From: a virus
Taxonomy: Duplodnaviria > Heunggongvirae > Uroviricota > Caudoviricetes
Direction: 5' to 3' (one strand)
Virus record (IMG/VR): IMGVR_UViG_3300017987_005500
DNA: 64,000 nucleotides
The translations under genes were made by a program, and so were the position numbers. The notes beneath the pieces are model-generated. The model was not told where the DNA came from, searched no databases, and worked only from the letters and a program-made list of their open reading frames with translations. Shown here piece by piece: positions 1 through 51,615 of this stretch (positions are counted from its first letter, which is position 1; each line of letters opens with the position of its first letter).

Positions 1-204
1 CTATAATTCTTGAACATTTTTAGCAATGGGACCCTTTTGCCCATTTTCAACTGTAAATTCAACAGCTGCTCCTTCTTCTAAACTTTTAAAACCATCACCG
101 GCAATATCTGAAAAATGTACAAATATGTCAGCTTGTCCATCATCTCTTTCAATGAACCCATAACCTTTTTTGTCGTTAAACCACTTTACTCTTCCGCTTT
201 CCAT
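1..204 (-). CDS. cspA: Cold-shock protein (CSD)
   Basis: [15 protein letters not shown] (RNP1) and DIFVHFS (RNP2). Start moved from 261 to the ATG at 204, which has AAGGAG upstream. Confidence 0.95.
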
Positions 205-272: not shown

Positions 273-347
273 TGGCAGGCCAGACAGGATTTGAACCCGC
301 AACTTTCGGTTTTGGAGACCGATACTCTACCGTTGAGTTACTGACCT
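273..347 (-). tRNA. tRNA-Trp (anticodon CCA), 3' CCA encoded
   Basis: Minus strand AGGTCAG...TCGGT-CTCCAAA-ACCGA...GCGGG-TTCAAAT-CCTGT-CTGGCCT-GCCA. Acceptor, anticodon and T stems pair. Confidence 0.95.
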
Positions 348-658
348 AATATTCTTTTTCTGCATTGAGGGCATCGTCTTTTCAAATCCTCAATATTAAT
401 ATTAACGTCAATTTTACCTTCTTCCCATAATTCACATTCAGGAAGTTCAGACTTATGATTCATCCCTCTTTTTATCATTTCGTCTTTTAATTCATCATGT
501 CTTTTAGATATATTATGTACTTCAACTAAACCTTTCTCAACATAACCTTTTATTGAAGTTCCTTTATTTATCGTTCCAATAAACATATGTGTTTCAACAT
601 GTTCACCGAGTAAATGCTTTCTGCATAGATATTCAGGTTTCACATTCCACATTCTCAT
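338..658 (-). CDS. denV: Pyrimidine-dimer DNA glycosylase / endonuclease V family
   Basis: N-terminal [20 protein letters not shown] and [16 protein letters not shown] match the family pattern. Confidence 0.8.
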
Positions 659-677
659 AATAAATCCTATATAACGT

Positions 678-717
678 AAAAAACGGGGAAGTCACCATGA
701 AAAAATGACTTCCCCGT
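678..717 (-). terminator. Intrinsic terminator (part of a candidate attenuator)
   Basis: 12-bp stem ACGGGGAAGTCA/TGACTTCCCCGT followed by a U-tract on the minus strand. Confidence 0.85.
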
Positions 718-743
718 AAAATATAAATTTGAGAGTCACTTTT

Positions 744-878
744 TCATGGTGGGAAATCACTTTGATTATTTGTTGCATTTTTTGTTTCATAAATTTCTAA
801 CCATGACGATAATTCCAACATACCGAGTCCGTGTGGATAATGACAAACTATCATTCGGCGTTCCACTAGACTTTTCAT
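744..878 (-). CDS. 44-aa candidate leader peptide ending DFPP-stop (absent from ORF track)
   Basis: AAGGAG RBS. Translates MKSLVERRMIVCHYPHGLGMLELSSWLEIYETKNATNNQSDFPP*. The stop codon lies inside an antiterminator strand. Confidence 0.7.
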   Translation of the reverse strand: MKSLVERRMIVCHYPHGLGMLELSSWLEIYETKNATNNQSDFPP

Positions 879-923
879 TGAAGTTATTCTCCTTAATTTT
901 TAAAATAATCATACTTTTGCTCA

Positions 924-938
924 TTTATAATATGTTCT
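924..938 (-). promoter_or_regulatory. Class B promoter-like motif (AGAACA-W-A...TAAA)
   Basis: AGAACATATTATAAA upstream of the leader ORF. The motif recurs before about 11 genes. Confidence 0.55.
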
Positions 939-963: not shown

Positions 964-1179
964 TTAAAAACTCCTTGGATTAAATGTATCAACTTCGGTC
1001 ATGTCATACTCAACAATCACACAATTGTCATATAAATGTATATTGCTGTGAGCTTTTAGCATTGTCAAATGAGCTTTCAAATACTGTCGTAACCACAATT
1101 TACCTATTTTGTTAAATGTTGGATCAAGTCCACCCTTTGAGAACAATCCTTTATCATTTCTAATTTTATATATCTTCAT
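964..1179 (-). CDS. Hypothetical phage protein
   Basis: AGGAGG RBS, class A motif upstream. Confidence 0.7.
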   Translation of the reverse strand: MKIYKIRNDKGLFSKGGLDPTFNKIGKLWLRQYLKAHLTMLKAHSNIHLYDNCVIVEYDMTEVDTFNPRSF

Positions 1180-2531: not shown

Positions 2532-3329
2532 TTATAATTGATTTGTATATTCTTTTACTTCCCCTGTTGTGTAATTTATTCTTATAAATTTTGGGCATTT
2601 CAAATATTCCATTATTTCATTTTGTCGTCTAATATCTTTTTCACATAAATTTCCATTTTTATCAAAATGTCCCAATTCATCAACTTCAATTACTATATTT
2701 TTTTCTATATCGTAACCATCAACCCAATAATACAACTTTTCAATTTTAAATTCCCCACCATTCATACCATGTTGAAAATTATAACCATGTTTTTTTCCAT
2801 ACTCGTCAATTAATTTGCATGCATCAGGATTATAATTGGGTTCAAATTTCTGACTATCTTTTAAACCCATTTCAATTCTTCTTATATGAGAAATTCTAAT
2901 TTTTCTTCTTGTTTCATCGCTATGAGGTCTACTTGGTTTCGATACTCCTTTTTGCGATAATGATATTTTCAATCTAGATTTAATGCTATGTTTAGTAAAA
3001 GTAGGTTTATGTCCCATTAATGCTAATGATATTTTATTTTTATGATCTTCAGAGAAAGGACCTAATTTTATTCCTTTTTTTGACTTTGATATCTTATCTT
3101 TTGTTTCTTTAGTGTGTTTTTTTCCTGTTTGTATTTTAGATTTTTTTGCTTTTGTTTCTTCACTCTGTTTTTTTCCAGTATTTTTTAAAGTAGACATTGA
3201 TCTTGTATATGGGCATTTAGTAAAAAATTCCCTACAACACCATCTTGTCATACCTTTTCTGGGAGGATATTTAGCTTCCCTCCCACATCCATAACCACAT
3301 ATGGGAGGGTCAAAATATAATATAGGCAT
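2532..3329 (-). mobile_element. Free-standing homing endonuclease (CxYGC Zn module, NUMOD3 repeats, Vsr/PD-(D/E)xK-like nuclease)
   Basis: CGYGCG...WCC...KCP; repeats GKKHTKETKDKIS; C-terminal VDGYD...VIEVDELGH. Confidence 0.75.
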
Positions 3330-10129: not shown

Positions 10130-10208
10130 TTTATTATTTTGTTCTAAATGTTTTTGTAATTTACTAAAATATAATTTTGGATAAAACTTTATGTTATATA
10201 TATTAATT
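10130..10208. promoter_or_regulatory. Back-to-back class B (minus, 10130-10145) and class A (plus, 10195-10204) motifs
   Basis: AGAACAAAATAATAAA faces queC; TTTTGGATAAAAC-N7-TATATATATTAATT faces 10255. Confidence 0.6.
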
Positions 10209-12974: not shown

Positions 12975-13008
12975 TTTTGGATAGAACGCATAACTATATA
13001 TATTAATA
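12975..13008 (+). promoter_or_regulatory. Class A promoter-like motif
   Basis: TTTTGGATAGAAC-N7-TATATATATTAAT, same spacing as at 10175. Confidence 0.6.
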
Positions 13009-17645: not shown

Positions 17646-17699
17646 TTTTATTTTTTGTTCTTAGATTCATTATAGATGCACTTACTATATATATTAATT
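17646..17699. promoter_or_regulatory. Back-to-back class B (minus) and class A (plus) motifs
   Basis: AGAACAAAAAATAAAA (17661-17646) and TATATATATTAATT (17686-17699). Confidence 0.6.
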
Positions 17700-47667: not shown

Positions 47668-47739
47668 TTTAATATATGTTACTAATAATAAAAATGGATT
47701 CTTATTTAAAATAATAAAAATACTTTAGGTTCTATGTGT

Positions 47740-47749
47740 TATATATATT
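47740..47749 (+). promoter_or_regulatory. Class A promoter-like motif
   Basis: TATATATATT upstream of the helicase. Confidence 0.5.
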
Positions 47750-51520: not shown

Positions 51521-51615
51521 AAACATCAATTATTATATTGTATATATGGTGTTTTATTTTAACAATTATTTTTATATATATTATACAAAAAAATAAATTA
51601 AAGAAAGGTACGAAT

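Follow-up and report, generated by a model that had tools for sequence, protein, structure and literature searches.

Leader-peptide attenuation is a textbook mode of control of bacterial amino-acid operons and of some resistance operons. Exploring a stretch of 64,000 nucleotides (hereafter the window) from the virus record IMGVR_UViG_3300017987_005500 (Caudoviricetes), we found a candidate attenuator of this kind in a phage: a short leader open reading frame (ORF) followed by an intrinsic terminator lies in front of a denV-like gene, a tRNA-Trp gene and a cspA-like gene, all on the minus strand. In the tna operon, termination is Rho-dependent, the stalled ribosome causes read-through and the TnaC peptide follows the spacing W-x3-D-x7-P. 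The phage leader is similar to TnaC in its conserved Trp, its C-terminal Pro, its UGA stop and in that a ribosome at the stop would decide downstream termination, but here such a ribosome would favour intrinsic termination.

The phage locus also resembles the trp attenuator (trpL; Rfam RF00513; kin hisL, pheL, leuL and thrL), with which it shares a short leader, an intrinsic terminator and an exclusive antiterminator. In trp, a ribosome that has arrived at the stop of the leader hides the antiterminator 5’ strand and so lets the terminator form, and its stay at the stop sets basal read-through (PMC1183508). Unlike trp, the phage leader carries neither a run of identical codons nor a significant anti-antiterminator, and would thus give read-through instead of super-attenuation if untranslated; the 1:2 pairing is not required in all attenuators of this kind. 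The phage leader is also three times longer than that of trp and, preceded by a promoter motif of the phage-polymerase type, would control a repair enzyme, tRNAs and a cold-shock protein. In antibiotic-responsive attenuators such as bmrB-bmrCD of Bacillus subtilis, a leader of ~40–50 codons gauges translation speed, efficient translation leading to termination and slowed translation to read-through (PMC4191407), and this logic is like that proposed here. However, bmrB has its terminator within the coding region of the leader, along with a predicted anti-antiterminator, whereas the phage has its stop codon within the 5’ strand of the antiterminator and its terminator after that; the output of bmrB is a drug pump, whereas that of the phage is translation capacity (tRNAs and CspA). 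The trn operon of Anabaena PCC 7120 (PMC8421152; TrcR, PMC10272220) is alike in that an extra tRNA set is silent and becomes induced when translation is impaired, yet it is cellular and under a transcriptional repressor, whereas the viral locus has a leader ORF and a terminator. Searching the literature, we found no leader-peptide attenuator of phage tRNA genes or behind a promoter of a phage multisubunit polymerase; what comes nearest is the Anabaena array and the premature-termination RNAs of phages 201phi2-1 and PAK_P3 described below.

Leader ORF, terminator and competing helix ahead of denV

The locus is best read as a transcription attenuator of the ribosome-dependent (leader-peptide) type that serves a phage operon, a reading to which, judging from the sequence, we assign a probability of about 0.65. 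The support comes from anatomy, conservation, energetics and geometry. A short ORF with its own ribosome-binding site (RBS) lies between a promoter motif and the first structural gene, an intrinsic terminator separates this leader from the structural genes, and a mutually exclusive antiterminator of comparable stability can form (Table 1). The initial annotation of the window had described a 44-amino-acid ORF with a good RBS ending in Phe-Pro-Pro-UGA, and this ORF is indeed present on the minus strand, 85 nt from denV. The 18-base-pair (bp) helix that it had drawn between 751–734 and 710–693 was recovered as 18 consecutive pairs with G739-U705 as the sole wobble, a pair that exists on this strand only and would read as a C-A mismatch on the plus strand. 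As had also been proposed, the helix takes part of the 5’ arm and the whole loop of a 12-bp terminator, the core of which consists of 12 Watson-Crick pairs (717–706 with 694–683) plus two U-G pairs. Given that both folds need 710–693, terminator and antiterminator are mutually exclusive.

Folding of an 89-nt piece carrying these elements yielded the long helix at -28.6 kcal/mol (z = -4.75), and none of 200 shuffles was as good. Canonical hairpins with a T-run are found at five sites in the whole window, three of them on the plus strand at 10.5–19.2 kb and one on the minus strand inside an ORF; the terminator studied here lies in the middle of a co-directional block, directly after a promoter-like motif and a mini-ORF. 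Scanning the window with Rfam at the gathering threshold matched tRNA only, and at E up to 10 there were only chance microRNA and small RNA (sRNA) matches, far under their gathering scores.

Conservation, energetics and geometry of the helix

Scanning metagenomes with denV, we obtained contigs of one sample series with denV genes 89–66% identical to that of the window. At this locus L022 is identical to L023 and L025 to L024; the full-module set consists of the window and three lineages (L021, L022 and L025). In these three, the order is GAACA motif, leader ORF, UGA stop, terminator, denV, tRNA-Trp and cspA, with leader ORFs of 43, 41 or 37 codons. A fifth lineage, L026, begins inside the 3’ arm of the terminator and keeps at least that part. 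The leader module is wholly absent from more distant denV loci, scans of IMG/VR by protein or DNA pattern returned no syntenic locus, matches in annotated phage records were limited to cspA, tRNA and short denV hits, and a pattern scan of genome contigs gave five matches in unrelated metagenome-assembled genomes, uninspected and presumed to be due to chance.

At all four full loci, the best partner of the terminator 5’ arm and loop, searched over ~230 nt upstream, runs from ~7 nt before the leader stop to ~14 nt after it, and the stop codon always falls within the antiterminator 5’ strand. The duplexes reach -30.7, -28.7, -23.5 and -21.3 kcal/mol, within the top 0–0.5% of 1310 genomic windows; the duplex of -30.7 kcal/mol, formed in our window by the terminator 5’ arm and loop with the 243 nt upstream of them, was equalled by 0.2% of this background, which kept the plus-strand copy of the same locus as the probable source of these hits. 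As a control, 16 ordinary terminator matches (~nine distinct sequences) in the fetched loci gave upstream duplexes of only -8 to -15 kcal/mol. With loops included, antiterminator and terminator states are nearly isoenergetic, at -27.8/-23.4, -25.8/-25.3, -24.3/-24.2 and -23.6/-21.3 kcal/mol, respectively. On the nascent RNA, the antiterminator (-18 to -22.5 kcal/mol) forms before the 3’ arm of the terminator exists, and folding length by length, a check suggested by the initial annotation, showed that the antiterminator forms first and has the lowest energy either at every length or up to the last bases of the 3’ arm.

Covariation across homologous loci had been proposed as a further check, and the three additional lineages keep an open leader ORF and the helix, with two compensatory pairs. 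Next to the word GUGAC, a U-A pair in the window and L025 corresponds to C-G in L021 and L022; in the outer helix, the fifth pair is U-A in L022 and C-G elsewhere. The 3’ base of this second pair is constrained by the antiterminator only, as it lies in the terminator loop, and its 5’ base occupies the second position of the final sense codon, such that the change makes Pro-Pro into Pro-Leu. Several one-sided G-U changes are found in the antiterminator as well, and the consensus fold of the terminator also covaries among the four lineages. Antiterminator pairs were tabulated by hand from invariant anchor words, since MAFFT misplaced the indel-rich 5’ strand.

In four diverged lineages the complementarity recurs at one and the same position, its pairs show compensatory changes and its energies match those of the terminator. 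This makes it quite unlikely that the leader is an ordinary small gene next to the constitutive terminator of an upstream unit, the complementarity being a by-product of the Pro-Pro codons or of the hairpin sequence. Other terminators are without such a partner and, as described below, the ORF does not evolve like a protein gene. This explanation would fit the abundance of small genes of unassigned function in this region, among them a poorly conserved neighbour of 71 amino acids (aa), and the arrangement of a terminator followed by a promoter is common in phages. Moreover, the block past the T-run has TTATATA, a partial match to the early-type promoter motif. Yet only ~7 nt separate TTATATA from the denV ATG, and the Shine-Dalgarno sequence directly follows this motif; a transcript starting there would be without a ribosome-binding site, and no GAACA motif follows the terminator.

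The helix differs in continuity among the loci: 18 bp long in the window, it is split in the relatives into 5+11, 5+8 and 4+9 pairs. The length in the window would suit a processing site, for example of RNase III, whereas the helices of the relatives are short for this enzyme. A related view takes the ~240-nt transcript from promoter to terminator as a small or dual-function RNA, for which there is precedent: premature termination in 5’-UTRs (5’ untranslated regions) gives rise to RNAs, among them one immediately ahead of a tRNA gene, that have been mapped in phage 201phi2-1 and also reported for PAK_P3 (PMC11512511). A function as a small RNA leaves the conservation of the leader frame and of its stop position unexplained, and there is no Rfam match; we regard a small RNA or a processing site as very unlikely.

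When a stop codon occupies the A site, the ribosome protects the RNA up to ~12 nt past the first base of that codon. The antiterminator 5’ strand spans from 5 nt before to 12 nt after this base, ending at 734, and that of L021 ends likewise. The geometry of the helix thus fits the footprint of a ribosome waiting at the stop, and predicts that the ribosome would choose between the two folds. We propose that transcripts would start at the GAACA promoter and probably also at an early-type promoter further upstream, and that the antiterminator 5’ strand would pair with the terminator 5’ arm and loop once these emerge. A ribosome at the stop would cover the whole 5’ strand, allowing the terminator hairpin to form and transcription to end, and the C-terminal Pro-Pro probably prolongs its stay there. 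If the ribosome is late, absent or stalled at least 6 codons upstream, the antiterminator would form first and persist, resulting in read-through into denV and tRNA-Trp, and probably into cspA and, as in the relatives, tRNA-Gln, tRNA-Leu and tRNA-Asn. The module would report whether translation keeps pace with transcription, and faltering translation would raise the supply of phage tRNA and RNA chaperone. This is the logic that had been suggested for the window, namely termination with a ribosome at the stop and read-through with no translation or an upstream stall, and it is backed by synteny, the stop position, the isoenergetic folds, covariation and the lack of an anti-antiterminator.

As to the latter, no significant anti-antiterminator was detected at the four loci, the fraction of genomic windows as good being 0.18, 0.05, 0.42 and 0.33; an untranslated leader should therefore read through. 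The one candidate considered, CAUGG at the Trp codon with CCAUG at the stop in the window and L021, was not above genomic background and is absent in L022. Whatever the context tested, Pro-Pro at the C-terminus disturbs termination (PMC3834316), and in the trp attenuator early release of the ribosome at the leader stop sets basal read-through (PMC1183508), from which it follows that a slow leader stop would tighten the off state. The role assigned to Pro-Pro-stop in the initial annotation holds in part: Pro-Pro ends five of six known leaders, but L022 has Pro-Leu, and since this exception stems from a compensatory change of the helix, the helix appears at least as constrained as Pro-Pro.

Table 1. 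Features of the attenuator locus and its surroundings in the window (positions in the window).
Feature	Position	Strand	Remark
cspA-like cold-shock protein gene	1–204	-	Pfam PF00313, E = 9e-31; reaches the window edge
tRNA-Trp gene, anticodon CCA	273–347	-	5’ end overlaps last denV codons and stop
denV-like pyrimidine dimer DNA glycosylase gene	338–658	-	Pfam PF03013, E = 3e-17; first gene past the attenuator
Block ACGTTATATAGGATTTA	661–677	-	Near-invariant; carries the denV Shine-Dalgarno AGGA (668–665)
Intrinsic terminator	678–717	-	G+C-rich stem of 12–14 bp, 717–704 with 696–683; 7-nt loop; six-T run 683–678
Antiterminator 3’ strand	693–710	-	Distal terminator 5’ arm, whole loop and 2 nt of 3’ arm
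Antiterminator 5’ strand	734–751	-	Last 5 coding nt, UGA stop and next 10 nt
Leader ORF	744–878	-	44 codons and UGA stop (746–744); C-terminus Asp-Phe-Pro-Pro
Asn-Asn-Gln codons AAU AAU CAA	762–770	-	8, 7 and 6 codons before the stop; candidate regulatory codons
Single Trp codon (W26)	801–803	-	Invariant in 6/6 known leaders
Leader ribosome-binding site AAGGAG	889–894	-	10-nt spacer to ATG
Non-early, AR9-late-like promoter motif GAACATATTATAAA (GAACAWA-N4-AAA)	924–937	-	45 nt before the leader ATG
71-aa ORF of unassigned function	964–1179	-	Syntenic neighbour upstream of the leader
Early-type motif ATTATATATATT / TTATATATATT	1223–1234 / 1233–1223	-	Before the 71-aa ORF; resembles the AR9 early (virion RNA polymerase) promoter

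The leader frame and the signal it may report

The leader frame is open at all four loci while the other two frames hold 2–5 stops each, and the leaders of L021 and L022 keep the RBS-to-ATG spacing of the window. The leaders differ from one another about equally at first, second and third codon positions (9,10,10 and 17,17,18), unlike the neighbouring genes, which show an excess at third positions (denV 9,1,28; cspA 11,12,41). An open frame whose residues drift like non-coding DNA fits a translated regulatory leader without a selected product, and the codon-position pattern argues against an ordinary small protein. The leader peptide found nothing in PHROGs, Pfam or the protein atlas; two more leaders, P0004 and P0005, with the C-termini DPP and VPP, came from searching 1.8 billion proteins with a profile. 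The leader is presumably translated, and the phage polymerase presumably obeys the terminator.

The same hardware could work with the nascent peptide as the sensor, a small molecule or factor setting arrest at the stop, as free tryptophan does with TnaC; how long this arrest lasts would then choose termination or read-through. A single Trp in 6/6 leaders, Pro-Pro at the C-terminus in 5/6 and UGA in all four leaders for which DNA is available are consistent with this, as are the motif PHFLHE.GSLNSW.G.Y.YT common to four close relatives and the arrest of termination by C-terminal Pro-Pro (PMC3834316). Tunnel sensors need fixed spacing, however, whereas the Trp lies 16–18 residues before the C-terminus and the YT-to-ES stretch varies by 2–5. 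The TnaC motif W-x3-D-x7-P is absent from the leaders, with no Asp at +4, and L022 ends in Pro-Leu while L025 shares almost none of the conserved block. The even spread over codon positions and the keeping of the same codons (identical residues are encoded by differing codons in L021 and L022 at 2/22 positions in the conserved block versus 21/96 in denV) point to constraint at the nucleotide level and not at that of the peptide; as the residues of the conserved block mostly keep the same codon in these two lineages, constraint on the leader may be on the RNA. We therefore consider a nascent-peptide sensor unlikely.

Two further structures lie at the leader. First, in the window (736–747, minus strand), L021 (2914–2922) and L022 (2914–2922), the leader stop is part of an AUGA in which a start codon overlaps the stop; the mini-ORF that it opens reads AUG AAA AAG UGA in the window and AUG AAG UGA in L021 and L022, with its stop within the invariant GUGAC, and is absent in L025. 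Re-initiation at this mini-ORF would lengthen the cover of ribosomes on the antiterminator strand. Second, in L021 (2765–2875) and L022 (2775–2885) a long hairpin pairs the leader start region (UUCAAUGAA) with codons 21–24 (UUCGUUGAA), directly before the Trp codon, and could gate leader translation, for example by temperature. A conserved 5’ hairpin enclosing the leader AUG was rejected, being clear in L021 and L022 and weak in the window, with unremarkable z-scores.

The signal is the weak point of the case for the attenuator. The Trp codon W26 had been proposed to sense loss of tRNA-Trp; the Trp is invariant, but it is positioned 16–18 codons before the stop, a distance that varies among leaders, and enrichment for codons of the operon tRNAs is weak, so that this role is not established. 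In a pooled test that enrichment gave P = 0.04 to 0.009, over related sequences. The idea that the leader mirrors the codons of the downstream tRNAs was set aside for its weak enrichment, and an enrichment for rare codons was inconsistent, the window and L025 being at the 5th and 2nd percentile and L021 and L022 at the ~35th.

A patch of Asn and Gln residues lies 6–9 codons before the stop, where the six leaders carry them at 16/24 positions, in changing order; 0/20000 shuffles reached 16, and in the three most divergent lineages 11/20000 shuffles reached the observed cluster. The tested stretch was chosen after seeing the data and the sequences are related, which makes the patch a lead. Its codons are the last A-site positions from which the footprint of the ribosome does not yet reach the antiterminator strand, and the operon of the relatives includes tRNA-Asn and tRNA-Gln further downstream. 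By its placement, the patch is a better candidate for regulatory codons than W26. It is possible, though doubtful, that the phage gauges charged tRNA (Asn, Gln, perhaps Trp) and answers with its own tRNA-Trp, tRNA-Gln, tRNA-Leu and tRNA-Asn and an RNA chaperone, through a phage-encoded multisubunit RNA polymerase.

Several points weigh against an attenuator. The leader has no run of identical regulatory codons, and with the main codon set the enrichment for codons of the operon tRNAs gives P = 0.07–0.44 per leader. The block that is well conserved among four close relatives could point to an independent function of the peptide. The covariation counts are small, coming from just four complete and mutually related sequences. 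The evidence for the attenuator is at the level of DNA sequence; coupling of ribosomes to the phage’s own multisubunit polymerases and the response of these enzymes to the hairpin are presumed, and cspA might have an unrecognised promoter of its own.

Putative promoters and genes of the operon

A GAACA motif is found 23–52 nt before the leader ATG at all four loci. Its other copies in the window are mostly just upstream of gene starts, as judged by reading the flanks, whereas a crude gene map scored 4/9 copies as intergenic. The early promoter consensus of phage AR9 is AAATATATATTAT-N6-G (PMC5312081), and the early-type motif upstream of the 71-aa ORF is conserved in front of the homologues of this ORF in L021 and L022 (35–42% identity), for which Pfam and PHROG gave no match. 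In L025, the early-type motif lies ~60 nt upstream of the GAACA motif and no homologue of the 71-aa ORF was identified. Transcripts from the early-type motif of the window would also run into the leader. Further copies of this motif, nTATATATATT(A), bring the list to 1223–1234, 2512–2523, 10193–10204, 12993–13004, 17684–17695, 47738–47749 and 51571–51582; they sit 40–80 nt before gene starts and are closely like the early consensus of the Bacillus phage AR9. In L021, L022, L023, L026 and L036, neither a GAACA nor an early-type motif was found from the terminator up to where the tRNA block ends; in L024 the next GAACA motif lies only beyond that block, and no second terminator was found in these loci. 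In AR9, termination at predicted terminators is strong, indicating that polymerases of this kind can obey such hairpins (PMC5312081).

The operon of denV, tRNA-Trp and cspA named in the initial annotation is present with all its members, but it is larger in the relatives, where cspA is followed by tRNA-Gln(UUG), tRNA-Leu(UAA), an HNH gene, a small membrane-like ORF and tRNA-Asn. The tRNA-Leu(UAA) is confined to the L021/L022 group, and tRNA-Pro or tRNA-Asp is added in some loci. The overlap of tRNA-Trp with denV (window 338–347, minus strand) has the same junction in L021 and L022, whereas a spacer of ~15–23 nt separates the two genes in L025, L024 and L026; owing to the overlap, maturation of tRNA-Trp should cut the denV message at its stop codon. 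Linkage of denV to tRNA genes may be a wider habit, as distant denV genes of large phages (L043, L051, L057 and L015) also lie among tRNA genes (Arg, His, Ser, Asp, Val), there without the leader module.

From the T-run to the denV ATG, TTTTACGTTATAWAGGRA (window 661–681, minus strand; L021 2966–2990; L025 1714–1735; L026 1–39) is nearly invariant in five lineages while its flanks diverge, and this block resembles the 5’ flank and arm of the terminator. The near-invariance of the block with the denV Shine-Dalgarno sequence would suit a switch acting mainly on denV translation, in which, once the terminator has formed, the ribosome-binding region of denV is paired with either the spacer or the strand that follows the leader stop. 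Pairing with the CU-rich stretch after the stop reaches -12.3 kcal/mol in L025 and -9.4 kcal/mol in L022 (top 2% and 5% of genomic windows), but in the window it gives -3.7 kcal/mol (75th percentile) and in L021 the 34th percentile, which amounts to nothing, and the hairpin has the full T-run expected of a transcription terminator. We deem control of this kind highly improbable.

The surroundings of the module show further genes. The minus-strand gene at 1721–2464, just upstream of the block studied here, encodes a metallo-beta-lactamase-fold protein matching the anti-Pycsar family Apyc1 (Pfam PF23023, E = 6e-20, above the cut-off). ORFs like homing endonucleases with NUMOD3 repeats adjoin the module in the window (2532–3329, minus strand) and in L021 (1507–2403), and the relatives have the HNH gene between tRNA genes; the region looks like a hot spot of mobile endonucleases.

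Csp proteins are known antiterminators, and a positive loop through cspA is thus conceivable. If the attenuator operates as proposed, phage tRNAs and CspA would be made on demand when translation falters and not simply by the temporal programme. The phage polymerases of this group would then terminate at hairpins, with ribosomes following closely enough for coupling. Should charged tRNA be the signal, the tRNA genes would be under a feedback in the style of the trp operon, useful against host tRNA depletion, tRNA-cleaving defences or cold. The finding would bear on why phages carry tRNAs, be it for codon supply, during host shut-off or in escape from tRNA-cleaving defences, and the module would represent a compact, portable sensor of translation stress.

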